Shown: positions 21,483 to 60,073 of the stretch, one piece after another
Position numbering within the stretch: the first letter of the stretch is position 1
How the letters are laid out: every line of letters starts with the position of its first letter
Origin: Octopus vulgaris
Lineage: Eukaryota
Length of the DNA: 64,000 nucleotides
Assembly: GCA_951406725.2 (NCBI GenBank)
Contig: OX597816.1
Span: 72,044,001 to 72,108,000 of the forward strand
Direction: 5' to 3'
Notes under the pieces: model-generated
Databases searched by the model: none
Told to the model about the DNA's origin: nothing
What the model saw: only the letters and a program-made list of their open reading frames with translations
Made by a program: the position numbers and the translations under genes

Positions 21483-22764
21483 CTATATAACAGATTCAGA
21501 GAAAAATGGTGAGGCAAGGAAAATTAATATAAAGTAACTACAGCAAAAAAATAACCTATCAAAGATAAGATTTTGCATGTTTGATAATCATCTTTGTTTT
21601 GACAATCGTTTCCCACCAAGGTATGGATTGATGAAACTTGTAAACGAAATAAAGTGTAAAGGAATGACCACGGGATTGCACTTAGAAAGTTACCCTCTGA
21701 GGCACAAGTCTATGCAAGGTTGTTTATGGAAGACCAGTAATCACCCATGCATACCTCTCCACACTGCTGATGTTATCCAAGGGAAAGAAAAAGGCCAATA
21801 CAGCTTGATGCCAGTAATGTTGCAACTCGAAAAAGTTTGGGAACCACTACTCTCGGGTGCAAAAGGTATTGGCTGTACTTAATTCAGCAAGATCTCTCTT
21901 CACAGTCTTAAAAACGTTACCTATATCTAAAACTATCAACTGTGGTAATGCACAATGTGTTGGGACTTAGCTCAACTTTTAACATCCCAAACAGTGACAA
22001 GGTATCACACTCACTTAAGAATACAATTATCATATGCTTTCTTTACTGTGTGCATTTATGTCGTCTTATCTGATTTGGTGTTTGCGCTTAATGTAAAAAC
22101 AGTCCAGCTATTGTGTGGTCCGTTGCGGAAGACCAGTGGAATAAAGTACCTTACTTGGAAACAAATAGGGATTGGTGACATGAAGGGAATCGAAGTGTAG
22201 GAGACTGTCTTAACAAAGCCTTATCCAACCCATGCCAGCATGGAGAAAGGAAATGCAAAATCGATGACAATGAGCTTGTGTGTGTGTGTGTGTAGGCACA
22301 GGTGTGGCCGTGTGGTTAAGAAGTTTACTTCCCATCCACAAGATTTTGGGTTCAGTCCTGCTGTGTGACGACGCTTTGGTTGAGTGTCAACCAAAGCCTT
22401 GTGAGTGGGATTTGATGAACAGAAACTGAAAGAAGCCTGTAAGAGTGCATGTTTGTGTTGTCTCTTTGCCTTGATATCATGTGCTAGTTGTAAACGAGGG
22501 TCTCTGTCACACAAGCAGTGCTATCTATTTCCAATATTCTGCAAGAATATGTCTGATCATAGGGAAATATTACCTTGCTTCAAAACAGGAGTTGAGGATT
22601 GGCAACAGGAAGGAGAACATCTGGCCACAGAAATTCTTACTTCAATAAACCCTGCCTGACTCACAGAAGCATGGGAAAATGGATTTAAAAAACACAATGA
22701 TGATTATGAGAATATATTTTGCACAGAATTTATTCTAGAAGATGTAAAGTTTCTTTTTAAAAAA

Positions 22765-23128
22765 TTAACCCTTTAGCATTCAGATTCCTTGGTCCAATTT
22801 ATTGTTTATTCACATTATTTTGAATTTATCTGGCATTATCCCGTAGCTTCAATATTGCAATGATGTGATTGTATATTTTTTTAATGACATTGTAGGGTAT
22901 GTATGAGAGGCTGGATCTGATCAGTTTGAATATAGAAGAGGCAGAATATTTTGGCCAGAGTGGTTGGCATTAGGAAGGGCATCCAGCTGTAGAAACTCTG
23001 CCAGATCAAGATTGAAGCCTGGTGCAGCCATCTGGTTCGCCAGCCCTCAGTCATTCGTCCAACCCATGCTAGCATGGAAAGCGGACGTTAAACGATGATG
23101 ATGGCCAGTTTACATGCTAAAGGGTTAA
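22765..23128. mobile_element. piggyBac-type MITE with a nested family-C SINE fragment
   Basis: TTAA|CCCTTTAGCAT...ATGCTAAAGGG|TTAA; the inner SINE is flanked by a TGGCCAG direct repeat. Confidence 0.8.
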
Positions 23129-23189
23129 TAAGACATATAAGAATAAAGACAAAAAAAAAAGAGAAAAAGTAAAAAAAGAAAGGACTTAC

Positions 23190-23413
23190 TACACAGTTCT
23201 ATAAGTTCTTTGACAGATGGTAGGACCGCAGGTTGAGTGTTTTGTAAGAAAAACAGGATAAGTAAGGTGATTGAATAGCTGGAAAAACTTGTACCACCAA
23301 TGCTCGCTAACTTCTGGTACTTAGCCCATAAACGGATAATGCACACCAAAGGGGCTACTCTCCAGTCGTATGATGAGAAGTATTTGAGGAGAACTGTATT
23401 GTGTAATCCATTC
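23190..23413 (-). CDS. TUT1: TUT1-like exon 7 (fingers domain)
   Basis: tttaag|(K)NGLHNTVLLKYFSSYDWRVAPLVCIIRLWAK...FSSYSITLLILFFLQNTQPAVLPSV..C|gtaag. Confidence 0.94.
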
Positions 23414-25987: not shown

Positions 25988-26232
25988 TTGTTTTGGAGAG
26001 ATAAGTCAAAGGTGATGTTGGATTTTTTGTGAATAAATCGGACAATTGGACACTGGACACTTGGTATGGGGAAGAAATTGCCAAATGTATCCCTGAGGTG
26101 TTTACTCAATATCTTTTGAAGAAATCTAACTTGTTTATAGGCCGTTAATTGAAGAAACTCATCCATGGGAACTGCCTGGTTTTTAATAAATTTCAGACTG
26201 GCGCTAGCATCATCTGATTGTTCCTTCAAATC
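25988..26232 (-). CDS. TUT1: TUT1-like exon 6 (third catalytic Asp)
   Basis: ttatag|DLKEQ...IPSVQCPIVRFIHKKSNITFDLSLQN+AA|gtaag. Confidence 0.93.
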
Positions 26233-26922
26233 CTATAAAAAAATAAACAGAAATGAATGAATGAATGAATGTTTGTGTGTGTGTGTGTGTAAAGACAGAC
26301 AGGTAGATTTGACAGGGTATCTATAGAATAGATCAAGGCAGATCAGGTGATGCAGTATGACACAAATCAACAGATAAAACAATCAATTCAGTTAGCAAAG
26401 AATGCTTGTAATGCATCACATAGAATCTCTCAAACATTCAGGTTATACCATAATACACACACACACAGTATTAATTGATAGTAGAAGCCTGCCACATGGA
26501 ATGTTGGTACTTATCTAAATCATGGATGAGAATGCATGAAGCTACATGAGACCATGAGGGATTTTGGGAAAAATAGACATACAATGGTACCTTTGTTAAT
26601 ACACAAATAAAGAATATTTATCCACCAATGCAGTGGTGAGCAATGGTTCTCACTGTTTAATGCAAACATCTCTGTCTGTCTATCTATATGCACACACACA
26701 CACACAGAGCTTCAAAATCTTCCTTTGATGGGGACAAGATATTTCCCAAAATAAATACTGCATTAATTGGTCAAAAGTTCAAATCATAAACAAATGAGAT
26801 AAAATGAATGTCTGTGTGTCTAAAACAGTACTCTTTTGAATTTGCATACTTCAGTTTAATAACTGATCAGATAAAGGCAACTGAACAGGATCTTAGGAAA
26901 GGCTGAAAATAAAACAAGGCAC

Positions 26923-27151
26923 TTAACCCTTTCATTACCAACCTGGCTGAAACCGGCTCTGGCTCTGTAGTACAAATGTTTTGTTTTCATACGTTTTGAA
27001 TTAAAATTTTCCACTAAACATTAGTCACAAGTTATGTTCCTAACACTAGCTTAATGATAACTAAGTTATTTTACTAAATTCTTTGTTATATTAAAAATGA
27101 TTGAAAGTAACTCAGAGCATCTCAAAATAAATACAGTAACGAAAGGGTTAA
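26923..27151. mobile_element. piggyBac-type MITE (second copy)
   Basis: TTAA target duplication, CCCTTTC TIR, body matches 9826-10050. Confidence 0.85.
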
Positions 27152-28511
27152 AAGAGTTTATAAAGTCACCAGAGAACATTTTGAATGATGTGATGTTGAA
27201 AGAACTGTTTGACAACAAAGAGCATCATAATATAGAGAGCAGTATAGCAACAGGGCTGGTGTACCACCCTCAGCAAGCAAATCTCTCCTTGCAGAGAGCC
27301 AGGTCAATCAAAGCTTTGTGGTTGAAATCTGGCAGAACATCAGAAGGGCTCTTACTGTTCTAGAGAATTCATGAGACACTTGGTTGTCTTTAATGAAGTA
27401 CACACTGTTGCAAGCATTTGAGTTAGATATCCAGTTTGAGGATGTCTTCCTCCTTGTCTCAGTGGCCATGGAAAGGGTCTGTAGACATAACCACACTGCT
27501 TTTGACAGTTGACATGTAATTTTTTTAATTATAAGGAGCAAAGGCAGGGATCTTGAGAATCAACTGAAGAAAGAAAATTCTTGTAAATGGGAGAGGGGGA
27601 AGTGGCAATATTTCAGGTGTTGAAAAGCTAAAGTATGATATAGAGACAAGCACAGGTGTTTTGTTACTGAGGGGAATACAAGGCTAACCTACATTATATA
27701 AGGGTGGATGGTAGTACCTAGGAAGAATGTAGCCACTTCATCTTGTGGAAACTATTTAATTAAAAATACACAACATGCTATGATATGAAACAAATACTAA
27801 AATCTTTGGAATGATTCAGGATGGCAGAAAAATAATAAAAAAACCTCACCCAAACAGCCCCTAACACTGTGCTGGGTTGCATGGCACCAAGAATAGGGGT
27901 AAAGAAACAGCGTAAATAAAACCTTAGTATTTAAAATTGACTTTCTACCTTGTAACTGCAAAATTAGATTAATACTCATTATCTCACCCTGGACACAAGT
28001 CTACAGGGTAAAGATGTTTTGCATTCCACACCGATTACTCTCACTTGCCTCCAGTCCACCTGTGAATTATCATCATCATCATTTAACATCCGCTTCCCAT
28101 GCTAGCATGGGTTGAACGATTTTGACTGAGGGCTGGCGAACCAGACGGCCACACCAGGCTCCAAAAACTACTGCTGCTGCCACCACCATCCCTACTACCA
28201 TTGTCAAGCTAAGACTATGTGAGTGATTTAGGTGAAATAGAAATAGCTTTCCCAAGCCATGCGCTACTGTCTGAAAAATAAAAGTCAGGATGCTCATGGC
28301 TGGGAGGTCTTTGTAGATCAGTTCAAACAGGGTCAATATGGGGGCCAAACAACAACAATTACTACTGTTGCTACTGCCATTTTATCATTCCCAGATTTTA
28401 AGGGCAGAGGACATTTACCCAATAGGACATGTGAAGGGATCAAACCCAGAATTTGAGGAGCAAATCTAAATTGGAAATGATTTTGCAGACAATGAAAGCA
28501 GTGTGACTCAC

Positions 28512-28609
28512 TTTAGGCATTGGTCTATGAAGATCCAGGAACACATCGATATCACAGCCTCTAACACCAAATCCATTAACCGAAGATCCAAAGAGACTAA
28601 CAGAACAAC
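28512..28609 (-). CDS. TUT1: TUT1-like exon 5 (Pol-beta NTase signature)
   Basis: ttctag|(G)CSVSLFGSSVNGFGVRGCDIDVFLDLHRPMPK|gtgag; hGS-x9-DhD motif. Confidence 0.96.
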
Positions 28610-29143
28610 CTAGAAATATATAACAAAGTAGAAATAAAAAGCTTAAGTTAGATAATAATAAAAAAAAAATAAAAAACAACAAAAGCAATTTCATTATTTT
28701 AAAATATTAACAAAGGACATTATTCCTTCCAACAGGCATGGCTGTGTGGTAAGAAGTTTGCTCACAAACTACATGGTTTGCAGTTCACTTCCACTGCATG
28801 GCACCTTGGACAAATGTCTTCTACTATAACCTCAGACCAGACCAACTAAAGCCTTGTGAGTGGATGTGGCAGATAGAAACTCAAAGATACCCAACAAGTG
28901 TGTGCGTATTCAGATACATGCATGTTACTGTCTCTTTGGTTTTATGCTACATGTTAGCATGATGGTTGTAAAAGAATGTTGTACCAAGTTAGCAATGTTC
29001 TATGTTACCAATCTTCTGTGATAACATGTCTGGTCATGAGCAAATATTACCTAGCACGCAGGCAGGTAAAGGTTGGTGACAGGAGGAGCATCCAGCCATA
29101 GAAAACTCTGCCTAAACGAATTGTCTGATTTATGTGAGCATAT

Positions 29144-29452
29144 GTTCCCCGTTCGTCTACACGCTGGGGCTACCAGCGACAGGCCTGTGCCAGTTGCCGG
29201 GAGCTCTGCCACACTACCGTGCCTGCAATCGTAAGAACAAACCAAAACTTGCGGTCTCGCCCACGTACATGTGGACATAGCCGCAACTGATGCCAGCAGT
29301 CGCGAGATCCACGCAGTCGATACTGTGATGTGATCCAACCCGTAAATTCACGTAAAACTACAGTGCCGCCCGCAGTGGCCGCCGCCAGTGGCAAGCCTGC
29401 GCTAGTCGCTCCACCGCGCTACCGTGCCTGCAATCGTAAGAATGGGGGGAAA
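29144..29452. mobile_element. GC-rich MITE-like insertion
   Basis: GC island in an AT-rich intron, imperfect inverted ends, internal direct repeat CTACCGTGCCTGCAATCGTAAGAA. Confidence 0.5.
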
Positions 29453-30290
29453 AAAATTAATAGTTTCTTCTCACAAAGAGACTAAAATTATGAAATGAAA
29501 TGAAATAAAAACTGACAAGATAATTTAGAATTGTCTTTTTAAAGTTTAGCCAGAAGGGAAGGCAGTATCTGCGATCTTTTACAGGGATTCCAACATTTGG
29601 GGGAAGAAGAAAGCAAGAAGGGTTCAACTTATTTATTTATCTGCTACAAGGTGGTAATTAGAAGTTTACATGAAGAAAAACAGAAAATACAAAATGGAAA
29701 TTTTCTTCTAAATTAGTCAACAAAAATGGGCACAGGTATGGCTGTGTGGTTACCAAAGCTTGCTTTGTTAATCACATGGTTCTGGGTTCAGTCCCATTGT
29801 GCAGCACCTTGGGCAAGTATCTTCTACTACAACTTTGGACTGACCAATGTCATGTGAGTGAATCTGGTGAACAGAAGCTGTGTGGAAGCCTGTCATATGT
29901 TTTATTTTTTTACTAGCATCCATGTTCCATGCTGTGTGTATGTGCATACGTCTTTGTGCCACCACTTGACAACAGGTGTTAGTTTGTTTACATCCCTGTA
30001 ACTTAGCAGTTCAGCAAAAGAGACAGATAGAGTAAGTACCAATCTTAGAGACAGATAGAGTAAGTACCAATCTTAAAAAATAAGAACTAAAGTCGATCTG
30101 ATTGACTAAAGCCCATCAAAGCAGGTCAGCAGCATGGCTGCTGTCCAATGACTGAAGCAATCACAAGATAGAAGCTAAAAGATGAAAATATAAAATTTCT
30201 CATATTTTTAAAAAAAAAAAAAAAAAAAAAAGGAAACTCCTAGAAAATCTTCTTTTGCGTTTTTAAATTAGTTTTAGATTAATTTATTAC

Positions 30291-30405
30291 CAGGAAAATA
30301 AGGATTCAAAATATTGCGGAAAAGCTTGCAAAATTCATCTCTCTTCTGCAGTTCTTTATCTGTCAATCGTAGCTGTTTGAATAGAAGCATGATTTGTTCA
30401 TCGAC
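30291..30405 (-). CDS. TUT1: TUT1-like exon 4
   Basis: gtgcag|VDEQIMLLFKQLRLTDKELQKRDEFCKLFRNILNPYFP+G|gtaat; phases 0-1 fit. Confidence 0.92.
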
Positions 30406-32846
30406 CTGCACATAAAAAAGAAATTAGCTATGATTACAAAAATATTCCCTCACAGATGTTGGCAACATTATAAATTGTAAAAGTTGAGGGTATTCTCAGA
30501 GATAGTGAAATGGGAGGAAAAAAAGTCTTATGTTGGAATCTATGTTGTCTTTCTTACTTTACAAGGTATATAAAATACCGGAATAGGATGACTGGGCACA
30601 GATGATTTGGTAAGGGCCCAGAGAGAGAAAAATAAAGATAATATACTGAAATGAGGAAAAAAAAAAAAAAAAGTTAAAATATTGAATTATCTCCCTTTAC
30701 GCAACAAAAGTACATTGCAATGAAAATGTTTTCAAATTTTCACACAACGTCAGCAATTTTTTTTGGGGGGGGGGGGGAGTAAGCCGATTACACTGCCCCC
30801 AGTGCTCAACTGGTACTTATAAAGACAGACTAAATGCCACTAACGTCCAGTGTGCCAATGGTTCTGCCAGTTTGCTGCCTTAACAAAAAGCAATAAAAAT
30901 AAAGGTTTCAAATTTTGGTACAAGGCCAGTATTGTTTAACTGGTACTAATTTTATTGGCTCCAAAAGGATGAAAGGCGAAGTTGGCCATGGTGAAATTTG
31001 AGCACAGAACGAAAAGACAGACGAAATACCTATTTCTTTATTACCCACAAGGGGCTAAACACAGAGGGGACAAACAAGGACAGACATAAGTATTAAGTCG
31101 ATTACATCGACCCCAGTGTGTAACTGGTACTTAATTTATCGACCCCGAAAGGATGAAAGGCAAAGTCGACCTCGGCGGAATCTGAACTCACAACGTAACG
31201 CAGACGAAATACCACTAAGCATTTCGCCCGGCGTCTAACGTTTCTGCCAGCTTGCCGTTAAGTATTTCGCCTGGTATGCTAGTGATTTTGTATACCCCTG
31301 GTTGTGTTTTTGCAACACAAAACCTGCTCCTGCTTGTTTGGACATGAACTAACCGGGAAGCACCCGACTGAGCATACGAAACATTCAGTAGGTAGTCAAC
31401 ACCCGTAGGTAACAGTTGCATACTGTCCTCCTCTTCCAGATTGTGAAGGCTTACCATAACACTTAATCTAATAACAGTGAAATTTTTTTATGGGCATATA
31501 TAGGTTAATAATAATGGCCTTATGCTTCAACAATAATAATAATGGCTTCTAATTTAAGCACAAGTCCAGCCATTTTGTGGGAAAAGATTAGCTGATACCA
31601 TTGACCCCATTACTTGACTGGTACTTAGTCTTAATTTTATTCATCTGGCACGTAAAAAGCACACACTACACTCTTGGAGTGGTTGGCGTTAGGAAGGGCA
31701 TCCAGCTGTAGAAACTCTGCCAGATCAAGATTGGAGCCTGGTGCGGCTGTCTGGTTCGCCAGCCCTCAGTCAAAATCGTCCAACCCATGCTAGCATGGAA
31801 GGCAGACATTAAACGATGATGATGAAAGGATGCAAGACGAAGTTGACCTTGGCAGGATTTGGATCCAGAATGTAAAGAACCAAACAAATACTGCAAAGCA
31901 TTCTTCCAGTGCTCTCAAAGCTCTGCCAATCATTCCACTAGTTTTAATAACGATGAGGTAGAATTTGAACTCAGAACGTCAAAGTGGACAAAATACTGCA
32001 AAGCATTTTATCTGGTGTGCTAACGATCTTGCCAGCTGGCCACCTTAATAATAATAGTTTCATATTTTGACAGAAGGTCAGCAATTTTCAGAGTGGGGAG
32101 TGGGGGCAAGTTGATTACATTGGCCCCAGTGTTGCACTGGTACTTATTTTTTTGACCCTGAAAGGATGAAAGACAAAGTCAATCTCAGTAGAATCTGAAC
32201 TTAGAACATAGAGGCAGACAAAAAGCTGCCAAACATTGCTTGGCATGCTAACGAGCCTATCAGCTTGCTGCCTTTTTAAAATTTTGGCAGAAATCTCAGA
32301 AATTTTGGAAGAGAAGGCATTTGAATCACATCAACCCCAGTACACAACTAGAACTCATTTTATTGGTCCCAAAAGGATGAAAGGCAAAGCCAACCTCAGC
32401 GGAATTGGAACTCAAAATGAGGACAATTTGACATGCAGACAATTTGGTCAACTTGCTGCCTTAATAAAAATAATAATAACGAGCACTCAGAGAACACAAA
32501 CCTCTGCCAAGGCAACACCAATGTCCTCTCAACGATTAGCCAGAAGAAAATTTGAAATAAACTTGGCTGCTCTCACAAGCGAGAATACTAAATATGAACC
32601 CAACTGCTCTCAAAAAATTAAGTAAAAAAAAAAAGCCAGAAAAATAATCCCGAATCCTTGCCTGGTACCAGATCGATCCCAAAATCTAATCAGTTCATGC
32701 CAGTCATGAGGCTAAACATCCCTGAAAGTTTCATCCAAAACCATCAAGCAGTTCTTGAGATATCTTGTCCACAGACAAACAAACACGACTGAAAACAATA
32801 CCTCCACCTATGCTAAGGCAGAGGTAGTAATAATAATAATACTTAC

Positions 32847-33113
32847 AGTGATTTTCTCCAAAATTTCTTTCTGAAGATTTGCAATGATGTCTTTGACATG
32901 AACCTGTTCAAGCGGCTGAATATGTTTACCCCTCTTCTTCAGTGGTGAGACTTTACGCTGGCCAGACTGACCGGGCCGATAGGGGAGTTGAGCATTAAAT
33001 TTCATTCTTTTCGGTTGTACACGGATGAAATGCTTACCAAAACAATGTTGTTTATATCTTAAAACATGCGAAGCAACAGCCAGATTTTCAAATTTAACAA
33101 ATGCAAATGGACC
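32847..33113 (-). CDS. TUT1: TUT1-like exon 3 (RRM C-terminal half and basic linker)
   Basis: tcaaag|GPFAFVKFENLAVASHVL...HFIRVQPKR...EKIT|gtaag; RNP1-like GPFAFVKF. Confidence 0.92.
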
Positions 33114-36820: not shown

Positions 36821-37020
36821 CCATGAGTTATTCTGATCAACATATGTAACATCAACAACTTTACCAAACTGCATGAAATAGTTGTACAACGCATCTTTGC
36901 CAACGTTTCGAGAAAAGCCTGTCACATGAACACTGTGGGCTGCTTCCAGTAAGCAAGAATGAAAAGCTTCAGCTCGATTCAAGTGTTTCTCACTTGTTTT
37001 GTGTGCCTTCAAAGCTGCTT
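36821..37020 (-). CDS. TUT1: TUT1-like exon 2 (H-x5-H half of matrin zinc finger and RRM N-terminal half)
   Basis: ctacag|(E)AALKAHKTSEKHLNRAE...SVHVTGFSRNVGKDALYNYFMQFGKVVDV...SW|gtgag. Confidence 0.94.
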
Positions 37021-45930: not shown

Positions 45931-47668
45931 GTTAAAATTTTTTTACCTTTGTAAGGTATTTCTTTCATGCTGGCCACTTGATAATTTCGACACTTAAATA
46001 TCGATATTATCCTCATATATAAATTTATATATATATATATGTGTGTGTGTGTGAAATTCTGAAGTTAGTTCACGGACCCCAGCACTAGCTTTGCGGACCA
46101 CTGGTCTTAATGTTTGTCTTACACACTGTAATTGTTTTAGCTGCAACATAAACACCCTCCGATCAAATCACTCGGCAAAATTATCTTCGAAATAATATGA
46201 AGTTGTCGAATATGTCACGCACATAAACAATATTCTGATATATAAACGTATGGGGCCCATATACGCAACCACATGCTTGAATCCTCGAATACCTACAAAA
46301 TTTTAATATACAGTACTTCACTGTTTATAAAACGGTAATAAGCCAGCTTAATTAGTCTCACTAATCACAGGTCTTTCCTCGTTGCTTAACTCGCATGCTA
46401 TACAAGCAAAATCTACAAAAATACACGTGTACTCGTTATATATCCTGTAAAATAAATCACAGACAGTAATTAACTCAGTTTAATTAATCTTAGTAGTTAT
46501 TTAAGTAAAATGCTGATTTATTCGTAAACTGGGTTGATGTAGCACGCCGTTCTGTACGTAGTCTCTTCCGTTTTGTACTGAGGGTCGTTATGTAGAACTT
46601 CAACAATTGCAAACATTTGGCGATTTGAACAGAGACAGTATATTGCAACTAAAACAATTAGGTTACAGTAAAAAGCAACCTTGGCCACTTAATCTACGCA
46701 TTTATTTATTCACATCCGTAACGTGATTCGCTAATAGGGACCAACACCCTTCGTCGTATATTATGCACGGCTTGATTGATACTCCGAAGGGGTCTTAGAA
46801 ATTACTTAGAGTAGAAAGGATTATTATTATTAATTATTCAAATTCCGTCAAAGCCAACTTTGCCTTTCATTCTTTCGGGGGGTCAATAAAATAGATACCA
46901 GTTAAGTACTGGAGTCGATGTAATAGACTAGCCCCATCACCTACACCAAAATTTCAGGCCTTGTGCCTACAGTAGAAAGGGAACAATGCCACCCTAAAAT
47001 AGTTTGGAGATGGATAAGGAGATTTGCAGTCACACTAACCCGCGATATAATAGTAAATCGATTTCTTTACAATCATTGCAAACATAACAAAAACATGCAC
47101 AAACTATATGAAACACAGCTAAGTTCCATCACATATTTTCTAGTTGTTAATAAAGCCCGCAAGTGTTAAATTTTGACACACCTTGCGTGTAACCAGCAAT
47201 ATGGAGCCGAGACAGGAGATGCGAAGTGGTTCTTTTTTTTTTCATCTTCAGAAATCTTTTTTAATTATTTATTATTTTTTTTACATCAACACAGAGCAGA
47301 AGAGTATAAAACAAACAAAGTAAGTGGGGAAACTAATGTTCATTCCCTTCTCAAAAACTATTTACTTTCTAACAGAGACACAAGGGGAGAATATTGTCTA
47401 AGATATCAAACGATGTTTGTGACGCGAAATGGTTAATTAAAAGATTAATCCGTGTCTTCAGTAACATCCTGCAAACTCTTTTAATATAAACTTAAACATG
47501 TCGATGAATGAATCCTCAAAAGATTAGACATCGTTGTCATTCTAGTTTTTAAGTTGCCATAATAACACACTTGGATTTGCATTGAGAATACACTTCATAT
47601 CTATATAGTATATAACCTTCAATGGAATATGGTCAAGCATTTAAAGAAAACGAAAGAATTATGCTCAC

Positions 47669-47711
47669 CGGACGCAAATCTAATATCGCATATTTCACAG
47701 GAAAAATTCAT
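47669..47711 (-). CDS. TUT1: TUT1-like first coding exon, proximal copy (1a)
   Basis: gccaccATG context; MNFSCEICDIRFAS+G|gtgag; phase 1 join to exon 2 gives C-x2-C-x12-H-x5-H. Confidence 0.88.
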
Positions 47712-47880
47712 GGTGGCGTGATAATAAAGATTTCAGACAACTAATAATGCTAAAAGAGGGACCGACTATTTGTATGTATCACATAAGGCTAAGTGAAACT
47801 TAGCAAGTGAAACCAGGACACTTGCTCTCAGACGTGTGTGCACAAGTAATACAGAAGGGGCGGGTAACTCCCTTGCAAAA

Positions 47881-47895
47881 TAGATGTCAGCACTG
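47881..47895. promoter_or_regulatory. Conserved upstream motif TAGATGTCAGCACTG (CTCF-like), promoter of exon 1a
   Basis: The same 15-mer lies ~170 bp upstream of ATG 1a and ~160 bp upstream of ATG 1b, while most neighbouring sequence has diverged. Confidence 0.5.
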
Positions 47896-49329
47896 TGCTA
47901 CAATTTCGCGCTCGGGCTACTAGAAATAGTAGCCAAATCTTTCATTAACTATGTCGTACGGTAAAGGCGGTGAGCTGGCAGAAACGTTAGCACGCCGGGC
48001 GAAATGCGTAGCCGTATTTCGTCTGCTGTTACGTTCTGAGTTCAAAATCCGCCGAGGTCGACTTTGCCTTTCATCCTTTCGAGGTCGATAAATTAAGTAC
48101 CAGTTACGCACTGGGGTCGATGTAATCGACCTAATCCCTTTGTCTGTCCTTGTTTGTCCCCTCTGTGTTTAGCCCTTTGTGGGGAGTAAAGAAATAGGTA
48201 TTTCGTCTGCCGTTACGTTCTGAGTTCAAATTCCGCCGAGGTCGACTTTGCCTTTCATCCTTTCGGAGTCGATTAAATAAGTACCAGTTACGCACTAGGG
48301 TCGATATAATCAACTTAATCCATTTGTCTGTCCTTGTTTGTCCCCTATGTGTTTAACCCCTTGTGGGTAGTTAAAAATATAAGATAACAAGATAGATGGG
48401 AGAGATGGAAAGAGAGAGAGACTCATCCGATGATATGGAGGGATTCTTGAATTTGTTTGTTTCAATTTCCACGTTGTTAGGTAATGCTAAAGAATTATGT
48501 TCGGGTACCAGCGAAGATTCTGTACATGCATTTATATGTATGAACGTAATCGTTTTCTATGCATGCAATAAATAGGACACGGTTCACCAAGGCAAATTTT
48601 CAAAGGCCGAATGCACACCTTGGGCAAGTGTTTTCTATATAGCCCTGGACAGACCAATGGCTCATGAATGGATAAGATAGACAGAAATTTGTGATTTGGT
48701 AGATAGAAGTTGAACACACACGCATATATATATATATATATATATATATCACCGTGACCGACCAGGCTATCAGATGTTGCTACACATCACTGGCCATAAT
48801 GCGCTTCGCATTGTTTTAGCCTTCAAATGACGCCACCCCGCTTGGCTAAGTGAGCAGGCCAACAGAAGAAAGAGTGAGAGAAAGTTGTGGTGAAAGAGTA
48901 CAGCAGGGATCGCCACCCGCCACTGCCGAATCCTCGTGGAGCTTTAGGTGTTTTCGCTCAATAAACACTCACAGCGGCCGGTCTGAGAATCGAAACCGCG
49001 AGTCCGCTACCCTAACCACTGGGCCATTGTGCCTATATGTGTGTGTGTGTGACTGTCTTTCACCACCTCTTGACAACTGGTGATTTTTTTTTTATATTCC
49101 CGTAACTTAGCAGTTTGGCAAAAGGGATTAATCGAATAAATACCAGACTTAAAAATAGTGATTTTTTATCTATTTGACAACCCTTTAAGACAGTGCTCCA
49201 GCATGACCACAGTCCAATGACTGAAATAAATAAAGGAAAATAACCAGAACTTTCTAGAGATGTACTTGTCTGACGAGTGTGTTTGGTATGGAGTGTTGAA
49301 ACCTAAACCATTACAGCATGGGAAACATA

Positions 49330-49842
49330 TTAACCATTCGAAAACACATACAAAAATTAACCTCAGTTAACCATTTATTATTTCATGTTAAAAATTTTCC
49401 CATGACAGCATAAGTGATCAGGATGCAGTTGATGTGATGAAAATTTTGACACAAAATTTTGGCACAAACCGCCATCAAGGCAACACCAATGCCCTCTCAA
49501 CGATTAACCGGAGATGATTTTTAAAATGAGAATATCTGAAACAAACTCAACTGCTCTCACGAACGAGAATACTAAAAATGAACACGACTGCTCTAAAAAA
49601 TTAAGTAAAAAAACAGAAAAATAATCCAGAATCTTTGTCTGGTACTGGATCGATCCTAAAATTCGTGCCAGACACAGGGCTAAACTTCCCTGAAAGTTTC
49701 ATGTGAATACATCCAGTGGTTCTTGAGATATCTTGCTCACAGACAAACAAACAAATACGACTGAAAACAATACCTCTGCCTTTGCTAAGGCAGAGGTAAT
49801 AACTGAGTAAAGTTAACGGTTTTTGTGTTTTCGAATGGTTAA
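49330..49842. mobile_element. TTAA-flanked MITE with a nested repeat (nested part shared with ~32480-32826)
   Basis: TTAA|CCATTCGAAAACACA...TGTGTTTTCGAATGG|TTAA. Confidence 0.75.
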
Positions 49843-50678
49843 TGTGTCTTCCAGGTTGTAAATGCTTGAATTTTCTATTTGCACCTCAAAGTTAAAATTA
49901 AAATGTATTTGGTATAATTAAAACACATTCTTTTATCCTTAGATTTGCTTAACATTCAGAATGAATCGTACTCATACAACACAGTTGACGCCTGTCCACT
50001 TTTAGAAAATCATCTTCACAATCAGAGCAGTTCTTAGATTCTTTTGAGTTCTATTATCACCTATGGGTTTCCTTTCCATATATTCCATGCAATAATGTCT
50101 TTATTACCATATGTTGTGATTCTTGAACAGTGGAACCTCAGTTTAAAAATTTCATTCGTACCTAAAAGCCATTTGTCATCCAAAACTATTTTTTCCCCAT
50201 AGGAAAGCCAAGAGAAGGCACAGAGAGTTTGAGCAGGGATGTGCAGTGAGCAAAAGCTAAAGAGCAACCGATGCTCTCCCACTCTCAGCTTGCTGCCAAT
50301 CATTTTCACCTGTTTACATAGTCACTACTCAAGTCACCTGAAAGGTTTTATGTCTGAAAAATTGTAAACTGATATTTTACCTCACAACATTTTGATACAA
50401 ATTTTTGTTGCATGGAACCAAAACTATGAAATTCTTCATGCTTTCTTCTATGATTGAAGCTAAGATAAATATATTTTGCATTTAAAATGATAAAATTATT
50501 TAGATCTTAACTTGAATGGTGGCATTACTTACTTTCCTATAATGTTGCTAGAAATTTTGATGTAAACAGTTTTCAATTTGGTTAAGAACTGAATTAGCGA
50601 CAAGCTCTGAAAAAAACTGCATGTGGTTAATTTGCAGCCTTAAGAATATTATTCAACTACTACCATAGTTGAATGATA

Positions 50679-51560
50679 TGAGATGGTATTGAAAGGTTCC
50701 CTGACTAGTTATGTTTAATAAAAAATAAGCCATCTACCTAAGTTTTAACATCATCTCTTTTGAAATAGTCATCTTGCGCAGCAATACACCAGTTCCAGTG
50801 CTTCTGTCGCTTTTGGAATCCAGCTTGGAGGTTGTTTTCCACAAGCGAGTCGAGGACCTTCTGTGATTTCCTCTGGATCTTAACAGTATTAAAATTGTGA
50901 CTTCTCAGCTGCACTATAATCTTGGGGAAGAGATGCAAGTCCACACATGCTAAATCTGGCAAATAGGGCGGGTGTGGAAGTGATATCGCATTGTTTTTGG
51001 CAAGAAACACACAAGTGAGGTGAGCTTGGTGAAAAATCCAATTCTTTGTGCACCACAGATTCGGTCACTTACACTAAATATCCTCCCTCAAATGCCTCAA
51101 AACATTGCAGAATTCTCGATTGGTGGTCTTGTCCTGGGGGGTGAATTCTTGATGCGAAATATCACGTTTCTGAGAGTGACGCTCATGGCAGGTCTTCCAG
51201 AGACGTTTTTCTGCTTTCCAAGCACCCATGCCACTTCAAAAATTATGTATGACCCATTGTCATGTGACTGTAAGCTCACCGAAGCATGCTTAATGACTTT
51301 GTAGCAGACTCCCTGAGTTCAAGGCAAAATTTCACATTGGCTCTTTGTTCCAACTTCTTGTCCATGACAAAAATCAAAGATTACAGCATACATGTGAACA
51401 CAAAAACATAAATTTCACAACTTGCAGAGCAAACACAGCAATGTCACTCGGTACACTGCCTCATGGCAGTCACTGCTGGCTCTCACTGCAAACGCAACCA
51501 TGTGCTGCCATCTGTTGACACGCTACAAAACAAGTTAAGAAACTTTCTGGTACCACCTTG
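50679..51560 (-). mobile_element. Internally deleted mariner-like element
   Basis: PHPPYLPDLACVDLHLFPK (YSPDLAP-D motif) in the ORF track; degenerate TIRs at both ends. Confidence 0.8.
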
Positions 51561-51611
51561 TGTATAATGGCATTACATGTATGTGAAAAAAAGCTCATGC
51601 TTTATTTAATA

Positions 51612-51973
51612 CTAGCACTATGACTCGGCATCGCCGGGTCATAGTGCTAGTGCATGCATATACAGCTGCATGCATGCGCACATACACGCGAGTACTGTCC
51701 AAATTTCCGACCAATCACATTCAGCTAGCTGGCATTCAATTGGCGTATCAAGTTTCAGGCATTTTGATTGGGTTTGGGATAGAAAATTCACAAAAAAATC
51801 ACTTCTGTTGATTTTTTAATGGCTTTGCGGGGTGACTGGGGAAATGTAAAGATGTGCACGACCACCCTTGGACGGTTTTGAATGACCAAAGAAAGTGTGA
51901 GCCCTCTAACTGAAAAATTGTGGATTTGTATAAAGGACACACACACAGACATTTTGCCGTTTATATATATAGA
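51612..51973 (-). mobile_element. Non-autonomous Helitron
   Basis: On the - strand: TCTATATATATAAACG start, CTAGCACTATGAC...GTCATAGTGCTAG hairpin, CTAG|T end. Confidence 0.78.
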
Positions 51974-54493
51974 AATTCTAAACAAAACAATGGAACAAAC
52001 AAAAAAAGGGGCACATTTATTAATGTTTCCTTTCCATTTACTCAAATGCATGTTATGCGTGCAACATACATGTACTTAAAAAGTTCACATCTCAAGTTTG
52101 TGGTCTTAAGTTCAGTCCTACCATGCAGCACTTTAGGCAAAGGTCTTCTACTATAACCCTCAACCAACCAAAGGCTTACAAGTGAATTTGGTGTGTACAA
52201 GCATGTGTGCATGAGTGTCTGTGTGCACCTGAGCATGCATGCATATGTATGTATGTATATATGTTTACATTTGACTACGAAAGTCGTCAGCTATGAGAAG
52301 CATTCTTGTTACTTCTCTCAACAGGTTGGCAACTTGCTTCATACCTTCAAAGACGCGACCTTACTTGAAAAACAGGTTAGGGTTAGAATCAGGAAGAGCA
52401 CCTATTTAACAGCTGCAAAACAATATCTCAATGGCAGCGAGCTGGCAGAAACGTTAGCACACCGGGTGAAATGCTTAGCGGTATTTCGTCTGCCGCTACG
52501 TTCTGAGTTCTAATTCTGCCGAGGTCGACTTTGCCTTTCATCCTTTCGGGGTCGTTTAAATAAGTACCAGTTACGCACTGGGGTCGATGTAATCGACTTA
52601 ACCTCTTTTTCTGTCCTTGTTTGTCCACTCTATGTTTAGCTCCTTGTGGGTAGTAAAGAAATAGGTATTTCATCTGCCGCTACGTTCTGAGTCCAAATTC
52701 CGCCAAGGTCAACTATGCCTTTCATCCTTTCGGGGTCGATTAAATAAGAACTAGTTACACACTGGGGTCGATATAATCAACTTAATCCGTTTGTCTGTCC
52801 TTGTTTGGGTAGTAAAGAAATAGGTATATTCATCTAACCCATGCTAATATGGAAAAAATGAATGTAAAAACAAACCAATGAATACGTTACTTGTGTTGGC
52901 GCCACATAAAAAGCACTTGTGCTGGGGCTGCTTAAACGCACCCTGCACACACTTAAGTGGTTGACATTAGGAAGGGCATCCAGTTGTAGAAACCATGCCA
53001 CAACAGACTACTGGAGTCTGGACAGCTCCCTTCTAGCCAGCTCCATGTCAAACCATCCAGCCCATACCAACATGGAAAGAGGACTTTAAACAATGACAAA
53101 TTTTTGAGGTGAGGAATCATCAGACAATTATAAAAAAATTAGGCTTAAAGCCCTTTATTTCCATTACAGTATGACATCTCAGGCAAGTAACATCTACTAT
53201 AGCCCTGGGCCAACCAAAGCCTTTTGAATGGTTGATAGAAACTGAAAGAAGCTCATATGTATCAATGAGCAGCATATTACTGGTTATGGCAAGTAACTGG
53301 TCAGAATGTTACCACTGGTTTTTGCGGCTCCTGTGCAAATTCGTGAAGCGTTCCATACTTTTTGGGTCATTGCCAGAACTGCCTAACTGGCCTTCGTGCT
53401 GGTGGTATGTAAAAGCACCCACTACACTCTCAGAGTGGTTGGCATTAGGAAGGGCATCCAACTGTAGAAACCTTGCCAGATCAGATTGAGCCTGGTGCAA
53501 CCTCTAGCTCACCAGTCCTCAATCAAACCGTCAAACCCATGCCAGCATGGAAAGCAGACATAAAACGATGATGATGATGATATTGTACCTAGAGAATACT
53601 GACGTGACTCCAGATATAATGGCCAGAAGTCCTTGATCCTATAGGAATCTAACCATCCCTCTTAATGCTACTACTTTATCTCTCACCATACACACCTCCT
53701 CTCTCCCTTTCTCTATTCCCTCAGACACGCTTGCCTTGAACAGAGACATTGCCAATAAGAGAGAACTGATTGGTCTTGTAGATAACAAAGTGATATCTCT
53801 GCTGGTGTTGCTATGATTAAAAGCACTTAGTGCACTCTGTAAAGTGGTTGGTGTTAGTATAAGCGCCATGATAAACTCTGCCAAGTACACTAAGAATTAT
53901 ACGTATCCAGGCATTGAGGTGGCGAGCTGGCAGAATCGTTAGCACACCAGGCAAAATACTGCCAAGTATTTTGTCTGTCTTTACGTTCTGAGTTCAAATT
54001 CCACCGAGGTTGACTTTGCCTTTCATCCTTTCGGGGTTGATAAAAATAAGTACTAGCTGAGTATAGGGGGGGTCAATGAAATTCACTACCCTTCCTCATA
54101 AATTTCCGGCCTTGTGCCTATAGTAGAAAAGATTATTTTTGAAGACATTTTCTTTGATCATATAGCATCTAGTTTTACCAGAACTACTAGTTCTAAGTTA
54201 CTTTTACTGGTCACTAGTTGTCAGTGTTACATATGCTTAGTATTCCAAGTTCTTGACAGTCTATGAAAGAATTCAACCTAGAAATTTATCCTCGTTTCTA
54301 CACATCTGTAAATAATGGCTTGGCTATGAGTAATAGGACTATTCTGTGTAAGCATCAACGGTGCTTATACACGACACAGCACAATGAATGGTAATGGCAT
54401 ACACCCACCATATGTGGTTCAAGATGAGACACTATTTTACACAAACTGGCATGGCTTGCCAGAAAGGAGCTCATAAGGAATGAAATGATTTTT

Positions 54494-54890
54494 GGCGCAG
54501 GAGTGGCTGTGTGGTAAGTAGCTTGCTTACCAACCACATGGTTCTGGGTTCAGTCCCACTGCATGGCACTTTGGGCAAGTGTCTTCTACTGTAGCTTTGG
54601 GCCGACCAAAGCCTTGTGAGTGGATTTGGTACACGGAAACTGAAAAAAGCCCGTCATATATATATGTACATATGTATGTATGTGTGTGTATGTGTCTGTG
54701 TTTGTCCCCCAACATCGCTTGACAACCAATGCTGGTATGTTTACATCCCTGTCACTTAGCGGTTCGGCAAAAGAGACCGATAGAATAAGTACTAGGCTTA
54801 CAAAGAATAAGTCCTGGGGTCGATTTCTTTGACAAAAGGCGGTGCTCCAGCATGGCCACAGTCAAATGACTGAGACAAGTAAAAGAGTAA
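54494..54890 (+). mobile_element. tRNA-derived CORE-type SINE family A; other copies e.g. 6680-7067(-), 9010-9355, 14818-15108, 29730-30170, 37176-37540, 55595-55977, 61810-62190
   Basis: GGCGCAGGAGTGGCTGTGTGGTAAG head, GGTTCAGTCCC B box, CCTTGGGCAAGT CORE-like block, internal (TA/TG)n, 3' GACTGAAACAAGTAAAAGAG. Confidence 0.88.
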
Positions 54891-56364
54891 GATAATTTCA
54901 AACAAATGAAAACTGTGCAAGATATGAACGAGTTAATGGTGGGGGGTATGAGGCATTTTGGCAGAGCTGTTTTGGTGCCACATATTTGGCATAGCTGATA
55001 AGACACTGACACTCTCCTCTCTCTCTCTGTTTATGGGTGTGAGCATATTTCTTTTCACATGTATGACGACAGAGAATGCGAATATTTTAATCATTTTCAA
55101 CTAATAAATTATGTCAGCCCCACATCCATCCCATGCTCACCTTTCTGTATGTGAATATTTCTGACTATGCTTACAGGTATATGTTTGGCTCCAGTATCAA
55201 ACAGTTGCCAAAATAGATTCGGTGCCCAGTCAGCCATGTCAAATTGCCAGTGTCCAAGCAGCTGCACCCAATCGTCTCATTATTCTGTTGAATGGATATC
55301 ATTAGTAATTATTTAAAACAGTTTTAATCATTATCATCATCATCATCATCATCATTTAATGTTCGTTTTCCATGCTGGCATGGATTGGACGGTTTGACTG
55401 CTTAACCAAAGCAGTTACAGAATGGTTCGTATGTTTTCATGAGTCATTGGGTTCAAGGCAATCCAATTGTTATCATTTGAACTAACCAAGATCAGTGGGT
55501 TTTCAACCAATTTTTAACTATGGACCTCTTTGATTCCTACATTACTCAGGTGGACACCCAGAGCCAGTTGATGTTTAAAAGTCCTATTATCCTAGGCGCA
55601 GACATGGCTGTGTGGTAAGAAGCTTGCTTCCCAACCACATGGTTCTGAGTTCAGTCCAACTGTGTGATACCTTGGGCAAGTGTCTTCTACTACAGCCTCG
55701 GGCTGACCAAAGCCTTGTGAGTGGATTTGGCAGATGTAAACTGAAAGAAGCCGTCGTATATATATATATATGTATTTGTGTGTCTGTGTTTGTTTCTCCA
55801 CCATTGCTTGACAACCGCTGTTGGTGTGTTTAGGTCCCTGTAACTTAGTGATTTGGCAAAAGAGACCGATAAAATATGTACTATGCTTACAAAGAATAAG
55901 TCCTGGGGTTGATTTGTTCAACTAAAGGCAGTGCTCCAGCATGGTCGCAGTCAAATGACTGAAACAAGTAAAAGATAGCTAAATATTATTAGGAATTTCT
56001 TCTTTCATTCTTTTACTTGTTTCAGTCATTTGACTGTGGTCATGCTGGAGCACTGCCTTTAGTCAAACAAATCGACCCCAGGACTTATTCTTTGTAAGTC
56101 TAGCTGATCCAAATGACAGTTCTGCAAGTCAAAACGAAGAATGACCCACAAAGTATTTAGTTCTTTTGATTGGATGTCAAGAAAAAAAAAAATGAAACTG
56201 ACGAATGCTACATTTTACATCTGAGACCCCCTTCGGTCATGAATGACCACGTAGAAATCTGGGCAAGGTTGTTTATGGAAGACCAGCAGTCGCCCATGCA
56301 TACCGGCCTCTCCTCTCCATGCCACCAGTGTTATCCAGAGGAAGGGCAAAGGCCGATACAGCTT

Positions 56365-56463
56365 GTCTTGCTCAAGAACACAACACGCAGCCCGGTCCGG
56401 GATTCGAGCTCACAACCTCACGATCGTAAGCTCGACGCTCTAACCACTGAGCCATGCGCCTTC
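56365..56463 (-). mobile_element. tRNA-Arg(ACG)-like SINE head fragment
   Basis: TGGCTCAGTGGTTAGAGCG-TCGAG-CTTACGA-TCGTG...GAGCTCGAATCCC, then TTCTTGAGCAAGAC; no pairing acceptor stem. Confidence 0.65.
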
Positions 56464-57197
56464 ACTACATTTTACATACTTCTCAACAATTACAAGAAGT
56501 AATTGTGTTTATTTGTTCAATAACTGGGCTGTCTTTTGGAGAAAAAATATCAAAACTAAATATATTTGGCAATTTTCGTAACAATTTTTTTATTTCTTCA
56601 AATTTTTTTCCAGCTGAATTCCTTGTTTGTGTATTTTTTGTGTATGTATGTATATTTGTATATGTAAACATATGTCTGTACGTGCTCATGTGCATGGATG
56701 CATTACAAACACACAAATATATACATACATATACTTACATGCACAAATATATACATGCATAGATTTACATATACATATATACATACATACACATACACAA
56801 ACAAACACACACAAATACATAAATATAAGCGATTCAGCTGAAAATGAAATTAAAGAAAAAAACAATTTTCACAGAAATTGCCGAAAAATACTTTCACTTT
56901 TGATATAGTGTCTTCGAAACATCGCCTCAGACAATCTTTCGATAACCATACACGAAAAATGAAACTATTTCTTCGACTCCCTTTTGATATACTTTCTCCG
57001 AAAACAGCCGTCAATCTATAAACAATCCACGGCGATGTTTTGAGGAAATCATATCAACAGAAAACCAAGAATTACGTGAGTGGTTAATACCAAGAAATGG
57101 AAACTTAAAATACGACGAAACATAAATTTAAGCACAAGAAAGGCTGAAAGAACGATCGCGGTATACTTTTCTGAGCTGACAATATCTGCTGATAATG

Positions 57198-57237
<40 letters not shown>

Positions 57238-57691
57238 AAAACTCGAGCAGTGTATAGCCAATTCTGTAATAAAGAGAAAGAATCAGCAATTCAAAGCGAA
57301 AGTTTTTTTTATTTTTAAAAACTTTCGTGTTTACTTTAGAGCGATAAACTTGTCCTGTTATTTAATATTCTAAATTTTTTTTCCACGGATATTTATCAAC
57401 CTCTTATTGGTTAATAAATTCTGGTGACTTTACTAATTCTGTTATGTGGGCGTGTGGTGTAAATAACTGGCCGATTTCCCGGTATAACGACCCACTTTCA
57501 CTTTTAATTTACAGCTAGTATTATTTCTTTAACGCATAATGGAAAAGTTATAGAAAGAGGAATAGGATATCGAAATTTTGAAAAGGAAAACATAAAATAC
57601 GTTTTTAAGAATCATAACCGATTTTTAAAAACATAGCAACCTCGGGGGTAAAATATGAAAAAATTGCAGACGGAGGTGTATCATTCAAAAT

Positions 57692-58840
57692 TCGGTTAAT
57701 ATAGGGCGTAACAAATATCAGAAAATCAAAAAAAAAATGTGTGTAATAGGTGTAAAACAACTTCCTATGAACGAATATGAAAAAAAAATTCGCGCACGCG
57801 AAAGGGGGTGGGGGAGAGGCCTCGGAAAATTCACATCGGGAAGTTCCGAAAGCGTCTGAGGGGCTGACCCGGGCACCAAAACAAAAAAAAAATAGTGTAA
57901 TATGTGTAAAACAACTTGCTCTAAACGAATATGAAAAAAAAATGCGCTCTCGAGAAAGAGGGGTGGGGGAGAGGCCTCGGAATATTTATATCGGGAATTT
58001 CCGAAAGCGTCTGAACCGGGCACAAAAACACAAACAAAAACAGCGTAATAGGTGTAAAACAACTTGCTCTAAACGACTATCATGAACAAAATGCGCGCTC
58101 GCGAAAGGGGGGTGGGGGAGAGGCTTCGGAAATTTCACATCTTCAGTCCACGGCCTTTAAACTAAGAAAAAATAGTGTAATTGGTGTAAAACTACTTGTT
58201 CTAAACGAGTATCAAGAACACACACTCACACATATTTGTTACGCCCTATATTAACCCAAAATTCGGCATACCCTACGACTTTGTTGCCTCATAACTTCCA
58301 GAAAAATGGATACTTTTTAAGGAAATTTCCAACAAATGCCGCTTAGATGTAGAAGATTCAGAGTATATAGGGATTTATGGAAAGAATTTTTCCGAAGGGG
58401 TGGGGAGAGGAGTTTCGGAAAATTCACGATCCGAATTTTTCCCTCATAACTTTCAGGAAAATGGATATCTTCTAATGAAATTTTATACAAATACCTTTCA
58501 AACGGCATAGATTACGATTATAAAGAAATTTGCCGGGAAAAAATTTTCTGAGGTGGGAAGGGGGTTTCGAAGAAGACCAAATTTCTTTATACTCGTAATC
58601 TATGCCGTTTGAAAGGTATTTGTATAAAATTTCATTAGAAGATATTAATTTTCCTGAAAGTTATGAGGGAAAAATTCGGATCGTAAATTTTCCGAAACTC
58701 CTCTCCCCACCCCTTCGGAAAAATTCTTTCCCTAAATCCCTATATACTCTGAATCCATAGCATCTAAGCGGTATTTGTTGAAAATTTCGTAAGAAAAGTA
58801 TTCATTTTTCTGCAAGTTATGAGGCAACAAAGTCGTGGGG
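57692..58840. mobile_element. Cluster of foldback elements with tandem ~130-150-bp GGGGGTGGGG(G)AGAGG modules
   Basis: Inverted repeat 57692-57718/58232-58257 encloses three modules; a second inverted repeat spans ~58273-58517/58593-58840; related modules near 60720-60940 and 63720-63980. Confidence 0.75.
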
Positions 58841-59263
58841 TACACATCTGTAGTTATGCCCCAAATTCCACCAGACTACCGTAAACATATACACATTGAG
58901 GATACTGCAATGCAAAAATTTCAAGGTTGCCGCAATCCAATGCTATAAAAGACTTCGGTCGCCAATCGAAACACAAGCTGCAAAGTGCAGCAGCATTATA
59001 TTCAACGATCGCCATCGTTAAATAAAAGCCCCGGACATATCAAAAGTTAAATTTCGGCTGAGAAGAGAGAGAGGTGACCAACAATATGGCGTTAGCTACG
59101 TTGCCAAGAGATGCCAGGTGGTTTTGCAGAAATTTCCATTTCTTATAGAGCCACAAAATACAGAAGCATAAGACAAAGAAAGCTGTAACGTCCAATTTCT
59201 TTCACAAACAAATCTTTACTTTCTAACATAAACACAAAAGGAGAAGACCGTCCAAGATTCAAA

Positions 59264-59618
59264 CGAACAGCGGTCTCGGTGCGCGCACTCGCGCTAGCTA
59301 GTCGTAAGTAGTCGATCCTACAACGCACTTGTAGGATCAACGAATTAAATATTTTTCGAACAAAGTAAATAAAACGCAAAGTAAATAATTTTTTAAACTA
59401 AATAAATAACTAATTTTTTATAAACAAACTAAGGTTAGGGTTAGAGTTAAAAAATTTTCGTAAAAATTATTTACTTTGTTCGAAAAATATAAAAAACCCA
59501 TTTTCTTTAATATGTATTCAGTCTTGAAATACAAACATACGCACAAGTCGTCGTAGGATCGACTACATACGACTAGCTAGCGCGGATGCGCGAGTGCACG
59601 CACCGGGACCACTGTTCG
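59264..59618. mobile_element. MITE with GC-rich ~70-bp TIRs, present only in the distal duplicated block
   Basis: CGAACAG(C/T)GGTC(T/C)CGGTGCG...GTAGTCGATCCTAC inverted at both ends; absent from the homologous 47.4-kb copy. Confidence 0.85.
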
Positions 59619-59854
59619 CTAATAGTACAGAAATGGTTGATTAGAGTAAGTTACCCCGGGGCTATCACTACAAACATCAATTAAACTACTTTCATTTAAG
59701 CCTTTGCATGTCGATAAATGAATGTATAAAAAAATTAGAAATATTGTTATTAATTCTACTCTTTAAGTTTGCAAAGGCAATCTAGGATCTGTATAAATGT
59801 ATATAACCTTTAATCGTATATGGTATTTAAAGAAAACGAAAGAATTATGCTCAC

Positions 59855-59897
59855 CGGTAGTTAAATCGATATTGCATATTTCGCAGGAATAACTCAT
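59855..59897 (-). CDS. TUT1: TUT1-like first coding exon, distal paralogous copy (1b), putative alternative first exon
   Basis: atcaccATG; MSYSCEICNIDLTT+G|gtgag; same length (43 nt) and phase as 1a; flanks homologous to ~47190-47895. Confidence 0.7.
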
Positions 59898-60058
59898 GGT
59901 GATGTGATAATGAAGATTTAAGACAACAAATAATATTAAAAGGAGAACTTAACAAATATATAATAGCATACAACACCACGTGGAAGTGTTAAAACTGAAA
60001 CTGACAGAAATAGTCTGTGTACAATTTGTGATGAGGGTTAGATAACTCTGTTGCATTA

Positions 60059-60073
60059 TAGATGTCAGCACTG
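60059..60073. promoter_or_regulatory. Conserved upstream motif TAGATGTCAGCACTG, promoter of exon 1b
   Basis: Identical to 47881-47895. Confidence 0.5.

Follow-up and report, generated by a model that had tools for sequence, protein, structure and literature searches.

Does the choice between two copies of a first exon change which RNA an enzyme recognizes, or only where and in what amount the enzyme is made? The question is raised by the gene for the RNA-tailing enzyme TUT1 of Octopus vulgaris, which lies on the minus strand of a stretch of 64,000 nucleotides (nt; contig OX597816.1 of assembly GCA_951406725.2, positions 72,044,001 to 72,108,000), here called the window, to which coordinates refer. 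A preliminary description of its sequence had noticed a duplicated promoter and first exon and proposed that promoter choice could swap part of a zinc finger, including an arginine-to-aspartate charge reversal, and thereby tune substrate recognition by tissue. The analysis below confirms the duplication and leads us to a different reading, which we consider somewhat better than an even bet: that a tandem-duplicated promoter and first exon have provided two likely promoters and two near-equivalent enzymes under relaxed constraint, changing where or how much TUT1 is made and not the RNA that it recognizes.

Two First Exons Are Spliced to One Second Exon

The duplication is real. Two blocks on the minus strand, separated by 12.2 kilobases (kb), have the limits described earlier to within a nucleotide, and weak similarity beyond both reaches about 47110 and 58968. 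In each copy we find the same CACC-ATG start, 43-nt coding exon, CEIC peptide and phase-1 GTGAG donor; the coding exons differ at 12 of 43 bases, as had been counted before, and at 7 of 14 residues. The similarity of the blocks is well above chance (E 8e-35 genome-wide), and the block has two matches in the whole 2.8-gigabase assembly. The features are:

47190..47895, minus strand: duplicated block, proximal copy 1a (upstream region, exon 1a and the first ~480 nt of the intron)
59074..60073, minus strand: duplicated block, distal copy 1b
47669..47824, minus strand: exon 1a, contig-covered extent (contig ends 47807 and 47824, which are not mapped starts)
47711-47669, minus strand: exon 1a coding part, 43 nt, MNFSCEICDIRFAS, matching residues 1-14 of P0005 at 100%
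59855..59997, minus strand: exon 1b, contig-covered extent (contig ends 59997 and 59940)
59897-59855, minus strand: exon 1b coding part, 43 nt, MSYSCEICNIDLTT, matching residues 1-14 of P0006 at 100%
47639..47671, minus strand: donor-spanning 33-nt run of copy 1a, the last 3 exon and first 30 intron bases, pyrimidine-rich
59825..59857, minus strand: donor-spanning 33-nt run of copy 1b, identical to 47639-47671 (0 of 30 intron bases different)
59264..59618, no strand assigned: inverted-repeat insertion, MITE-like (miniature inverted-repeat transposable element), confined to the intron of copy 1b; it matches itself in inverted orientation at 67% across 384 columns
36821..37020, minus strand: exon 2, common to both forms, following CTACAG

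The element in copy 1b had previously been called a MITE; the inverted-repeat insertion is there and is MITE-like, and we could establish no target-site duplication. Exon 2 has a single match in the assembly; no second exon 2 was found there, in agreement with the earlier failure to find one between the copies. No third copy of the block was detected by a two-block profile in the window and the 20 kb upstream, and a stop-free-frame listing, a weak test, gave no convincing frame in the 20 kb upstream for another gene that 1b might serve.

Both first exons are spliced to the shared exon 2, and the two junctions that the preliminary description had named for checking were found in public contigs. 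Six of the 24 runs listed for exon 2 were compared, four for each junction. Junction 47669>37020 is present, among the matches listed, in contigs of X12 and X18, which were compared together with X4 and X7; this side gave a repeat-rich result, and 32 of about 93,000 pieces form the basis of those matches. These contigs extend from 47807 or 47824 down to 47669 and then continue at 37020. Junction 59855>37020 is present in contigs of X7 and X6, the other runs on this side being X4 and X1; here the contigs cover 59997 or 59940 to 59855, and what extends beyond 59855 matches the beginning of exon 2. Splicing from exon 1b to exon 2, the absence of which would have spoken against the original proposal, is thus observed. 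The four junction contigs come from four different studies, respect exact GT-AG limits and skip 10.6 and 22.8 kb. They are 1391-3492 nt long and carry one first exon apiece, at 99-100% identity, which hints that the dominant first exon differs among samples. The X4 contig begins 2 letters before 37021, where an assembled contig would be expected to branch if both exons, which have a 3-nt suffix in common, were present in that run. No further upstream exon was seen: the contigs, which cannot show starts, end 43-113 nt upstream of each ATG.

Each leader also contains an upstream ATG, at 47784 and 59969 (both minus strand), which in 1a is directly followed by a stop and in 1b opens a frame of 6 codons; these could be a source of unequal translation of the two forms.

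Isoform pairs in the protein cluster indicate that both N-termini are already in automated annotation. Octopus sinensis has two 880-residue isoforms, XP_029634138.1 and XP_029634137.1, with 1a- and 1b-type starts, and the O. vulgaris pair, CAI9719460.1 and CAI9719459.1, likewise has 1a- and 1b-type starts; each of the two maps to ten exons in the window, and their first 14 residues lie at 47711 and 59897, respectively. The O. vulgaris records may have been derived from the assembly used here, and the O. sinensis protein is identical at all but 1 of 880 residues, so that these records add no evolutionary depth. The suggestion to look for exon 1b in other cephalopods thus succeeded only for the near-identical O. 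sinensis. Protein searches found no 1b-type start outside these two species, and gave a single N-terminus each for Octopus bimaculoides and Argonauta, where the label "isoform X2" has no partner within its cluster. For O. bimaculoides the annotation divides the gene into two proteins, P0045 (106 residues), which reads into intron 2, and P0003 (703 residues); a record split in this way cannot reveal a second first exon.

The Duplicated Exon Encodes Half of a Zinc Finger in a TUT1 Orthologue

The identification of the gene as TUT1, made earlier from the sequence, is borne out: domain order, catalytic residues and best matches support an orthologue of TUT1/Star-PAP (TENT1). Exon 2 matches Star-PAP-named proteins of O. 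sinensis and Argonauta hians, and human TUT1 is the best match by sequence and the top match by fold. Both isoforms score above the Pfam cut-offs for PF12874 zf-met, PF00076 RRM, PF22600 MTPAP-like palm and PF03828 PAP_assoc, in that order. A catalytic triad of D228, D230 and D317 together with N328, the equivalent of Asn392, is present in 13 of 13 full-length rows of alignment A1. The human enzyme (8IDF, 9J8P) has the same order of zinc finger, RRM, palm and fingers, the three catalytic Asp and Asn392. A genome scan with PF03828 missed the TUT1 gene itself and was not used. The remaining exons, shared by both forms, have these approximate limits by tblastn:

15813..33113, minus strand: exons 3-10, rest of the RRM to the C-terminal alpha/beta domain
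33113-32844, 30405-30289, 28616-28512, 26232-25987, 23421-23191, 21480-21385, 20366-20229 and 17030-15813, minus strand: the individual limits of exons 3-10

Either first exon, joined to exon 2, gives C-x2-C-x12-H-x5-H, exactly as had been stated. The accompanying word "matrin" was that description's own label; the Pfam name is zf-met, with scores of 31.1 (1a) and 26.9 (1b) bits against a cut-off of 21.2. A second family, zf-C2H2_jaz, takes 1a above its cut-off of 22.6 (29.2) and leaves 1b just below it (22.4). The predicted structure of isoform 1b has strands at residues 3-5 and 10-12 and a helix from residue 15 (predicted local distance difference test scores 61-78 over residues 1-30), so the intron would fall between hairpin and helix, and the claim that exon 1 encodes the beta-hairpin agrees with this model. 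Both isoforms thus show the C2H2 sequence pattern, and the 1b model shows the beta-beta-alpha fold. Exon 2 carries the finger helix, both His ligands, Glu25-Lys26 and the first half of the RRM, and exons 3-10 the rest of the RRM, the nucleotidyltransferase palm, the PAP-associated fingers and the C-terminal alpha/beta domain.

The Coding Copies Have Diverged as Much as Their Introns

Between the introns of 1a and 1b there are 22 gaps and, over 375 aligned sites, 93 differences, a level from which the 12 differences in 43 coding bases are not distinguishable (Fisher P = 0.71). Over 39 coding sites, the ratio of nonsynonymous to synonymous divergence (dN/dS) is 0.65 and that of dN to intron divergence 1.19 (P = 0.54). 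In a simulation of neutral decay, a copy retained its ATG, both Cys codons, frame and GT with P = 0.06 if half of the intron divergence was placed on it, 0.24 without indels and 0.004 with all of the divergence on that copy; across this range, intactness alone is weak evidence of selection. The one clear non-neutral feature is the identical 33-nt run across the donor, since a run of such length has P about 0.002 in a block whose background divergence is ~25%; it is either a constrained splice element or a trace of gene conversion. The sole recorded start of O. bimaculoides, MNFACEICNIGFTS (XP_014790624.1), is 4 residues from 1a and 6 from 1b, implying that both hairpins have changed, not 1b alone.

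Does the Hairpin Swap Alter RNA Recognition?

Octopus residues 1-14 align with human TUT1 14-27, and the human contacts are known in some detail; statements from the cited papers refer throughout to the portions of their text available to us. Base contacts are Q53, F59, D90, K91 and R124-E127, and the mutants comprise R38/K39, R50/Q53, D88/K89 and F59/F94 (PMC10415362); R13 and R120-R124 are further contacts (PMC11734702). In those portions, every contact named in the text or mutated (R13, R38/K39, R50/Q53, F59, D88-K91, F94, R120-E127) lies outside human 14-27. Tailing at 2 min falls from about 0.79 to 0.29 in the R38A/K39A mutant (PMC10415362).

The variability of the hairpin was gauged in 65 relatives, selected from 191 proteins by a pattern for the finger and the catalytic motif, with 6 near-duplicates and the 2 query isoforms excluded; Cys and His are invariant in this set by selection. 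Position 11, the site of the charge reversal, has the highest entropy in the finger (3.6 bits): Thr occurs 13 times, Ser 8, Lys 7, Asn 7, Glu 5, Gly 4 and Arg 3, with Asp in P0191 and acidic residues at least 6 times. The 1b residues Y3, N9, L12, T13 and T14 occur 2, 13, 14, 6 and 8 times. In O. bimaculoides position 11 is Gly, and a single base change leads from a Gly codon either to AGA or to GAT, so the reversal probably consists of two independent one-step changes. A compensated frameshift as the origin of the RF/DL difference can be aligned and may be possible, but two single changes from Gly suffice, and it is not needed. The proposal that the reversal tunes RNA recognition thus finds it at the most variable position of the finger, with Gly in a congener and no named contact in 14-27, and we do not uphold it. 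A switch of specificity may still be possible, though poorly supported.

A Probable Regulatory Duplication and Its Alternatives

How, then, is the locus best explained? We suggest that a tandem duplication gave octopus TUT1 two first exons, each joined to the same exon 2; the beta-hairpin with its two Cys then comes from whichever exon 1 is used, and the helix, the pair of His ligands and the RRM always come from exon 2. Separate promoters would serve 1a and 1b and be used differently among samples. With the exon present twice, the hairpins would have been free to change wherever substitutions are tolerated, whereas the start, the reading frame, the Cys codons and the sequence around the donor were retained; the resulting isoforms would be biochemically near-equivalent, under relaxed rather than positive selection. 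The duplication would then alter the place and amount of TUT1, not its RNA target: because the two proteins are likely alike in function, a regulatory duplication accounts for them better than a switch in RNA recognition.

The proposal of the preliminary description, that selection drove the hairpins apart and that the promoter in use adjusts, tissue by tissue, how RNA or partners are recognized, seems to us unlikely. It can draw on the 7 of 14 differing residues, on the drop of 1b just under the zf-C2H2_jaz cut-off that 1a clears, and on a rate of change in exon 1 that is, relative to O. bimaculoides, ~8 times that of the remaining protein; among human swaps of duplicated exons, too, tissue specificity prevails (57 of the 81 events that have peptides; PMC9741552). 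Yet dN is not significantly above intron divergence, position 11 is the least conserved column of the finger, the conserved basic contact pair lies in the shared exon 2, and the human hairpin region holds none of the contacts named or mutated in the available text. The peptide-backed, tissue-specific human cases, moreover, are all older than 450 million years (PMC9741552), whereas here the introns still align. Plain redundancy, in which both promoters fire, nothing is divided, and one copy is drifting to loss or is absent in other octopuses, is a slightly stronger contender that we nevertheless doubt. The neutral-like coding divergence, an intactness not clearly beyond chance (P 0.06), the insertion in copy 1b, the one N-terminus found for O. 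bimaculoides and for Argonauta, and the lack of depth added by O. sinensis would all fit it. Against it, both exons are still spliced after ~25% intron divergence, each assembled form being found in two studies, and the donor run has remained identical; a missing 1b in databases that hold one model per fragmented gene says little. That the two copies reflect an assembly artefact or two haplotypes of one exon is scarcely credible. Repeat-rich genomes carry this risk in general, and the O. vulgaris annotation, possibly from the same assembly, was not counted as independent; however, the copies differ by ~25% with many indels, both exons are annotated in a second species, and each is matched at 99-100% identity in independent runs.

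Several observations weigh against a purely regulatory duplication. The RNA status of the runs is a guess by the software, none of those listed for exon 2 being recorded as RNA, a fact that says nothing about expression; contigs give no start site, level or tissue; and use of 1a and 1b was compared across runs, not fully within one run. X4 and X1 have no contig on 1b, which is no proof of absence. The 39 coding sites offer little power, and identity of the donor run could come from gene conversion. In the human enzyme the finger holds the U6 telestem and Arg13 touches the backbone (PMC10415362, PMC11734702); Arg13 lies one residue before the position of octopus Met1, which places the N-terminal end of the hairpin near RNA, and with the telestem held by the whole finger further contacts within 14-27 are possible. 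The rate of change is also uneven: against O. bimaculoides, 1a differs at 4 of 14 hairpin residues and at 26 of 768 elsewhere (3.4%; P = 7e-4), and Argonauta differs at 7 of 12 hairpin residues against 29% for the protein body. Two other relatives, P0007 and P0008, show no such excess (3 of 13 versus 38%), implying that the speed-up is octopod-wide, and it could be adaptive. A fast hairpin fits relaxed constraint and is compatible with selection too; we infer that release from U6 may be its cause.

Octopod TUT1 Departs from the Human U6 Uridylyltransferase

What the shared exons encode bears on that release. Human His549 binds O4 of uridine triphosphate (UTP; PMC5467268), and its counterpart determines the preference for UTP in Cid1 and, when inserted there, in Gld2 (PMC3479196, PMC4931116). 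The aligned octopus residue is Ile488:

16989..16991, minus strand: Ile488 codon (ATC), aligned with human TUT1 His549

O. sinensis and O. bimaculoides have Ile as well, and Argonauta has Thr. Among 48 scored relatives (17 more were unscored by the pattern) 39 have His; Arg, Phe or Ile stands in a few of the rest, so loss of His549 is not unique to octopods. The finger motif G-K/R-K/R (human G37-R38-K39, which U6 tailing requires) is S-E-K in Octopus and Argonauta (36983-36991, minus strand, exon 2): Glu25 replaces R38, a site with Lys or Arg in 61 of 65 relatives, and Lys26 is retained. Human Q53, F59, R124, R126 and E127 align with Glu40, His46, Q, Lys116 and R, several contacts to the AUA being thereby changed, and octopus TUT1 is without the N-terminal extension that carries Arg13. 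With His549 and a basic finger residue replaced in the shared part of the protein, U6 uridylation cannot be assumed: judged by these positions, the octopod enzyme is a TUT1 orthologue that lacks residues expected of a U6-specific uridylyltransferase, and its nucleotide preference may be shifted. Star-PAP adenylates mRNA in human cells (PMC6309179). A bolder scenario, that octopod TUT1 has left U6 uridylation to become an adenylating or mixed-tail enzyme on other RNAs, with two promoter-switched, fast-evolving hairpins picking tissue-specific targets, strikes us as improbable.

Relation to Known Duplicated First Exons

Two homologous neighboring exons, each separately spliced to a common exon, place octopus TUT1 in a described class, that of tandem-duplicated alternative first coding exons. 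In UGT1A and the clustered protocadherins the variable exon is a large, specificity-bearing part present in many copies. The variable exon of octopus TUT1, in contrast, spans 14 residues and has two copies; promoter choice among homologous first exons joined to constant exons is described for those gene families (PMC9741552) and probably applies to octopus TUT1 as well. N-terminal homologous alternative first exons account for 39 of 236 human substitutions derived from tandem exon duplication (PMC8373072). Like octopus TUT1, these N-terminal cases combine a duplicated 5' coding exon and its own upstream region with common downstream exons and kept structural ligands. The human cases are mostly ancient, 91% being shared with fish (PMC8373072), whereas the octopus introns still align, its coding divergence is at the neutral level, and a single zinc site is put together from an alternative and a shared exon. 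The main text of PMC8373072 mentions neither "TUT1" nor "zinc finger", and no paper on cephalopod TUT1 or on both first exons was found in the literature searched, whose coverage leaves out most subscription papers.

On the likeliest reading, octopus TUT1 offers a clean, young duplicated promoter and first exon with an exchangeable half of a zinc site, useful for asking whether duplicates are kept first for expression and later for protein function. Its importance would be greater if the isoforms had different RNA targets, or if loss of His549 meant that octopods tail U6 by another enzyme.

Promoter 15-mer and Surrounding Repeats

A 15-mer common to 47895 and 60073 was considered as a promoter motif and rejected as evidence. 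It has 11 genome matches against 0 for a reversed control, and a degenerate form has 65 against 5. Of these 65, 21 were inspected, at 20 places; the commonest variant of the 15-mer was seen at 10 of them, every time within one dispersed repeat family with inverted ends and copies about 75-90% alike (L005-L008, L010, L013, L015, L018 and L019); L016 and L023 have another repeat in common. A literature search on the 15-mer gave only unrelated papers, and an identical run of 16 nt within the block is no more than chance would give (P 0.53).

The introns also contain several long self-inverted elements, at 45578-45930, 58269-58842, 38047-38561 and 34160-34500, whose arms match at up to 96% (over 355 nt); in the pre-mRNA they could fold into double-stranded RNA. 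Upstream of copy 1b, L003:7188-7930 (plus strand) contains a 247-residue open frame, which we take to resemble a mariner-type transposase.

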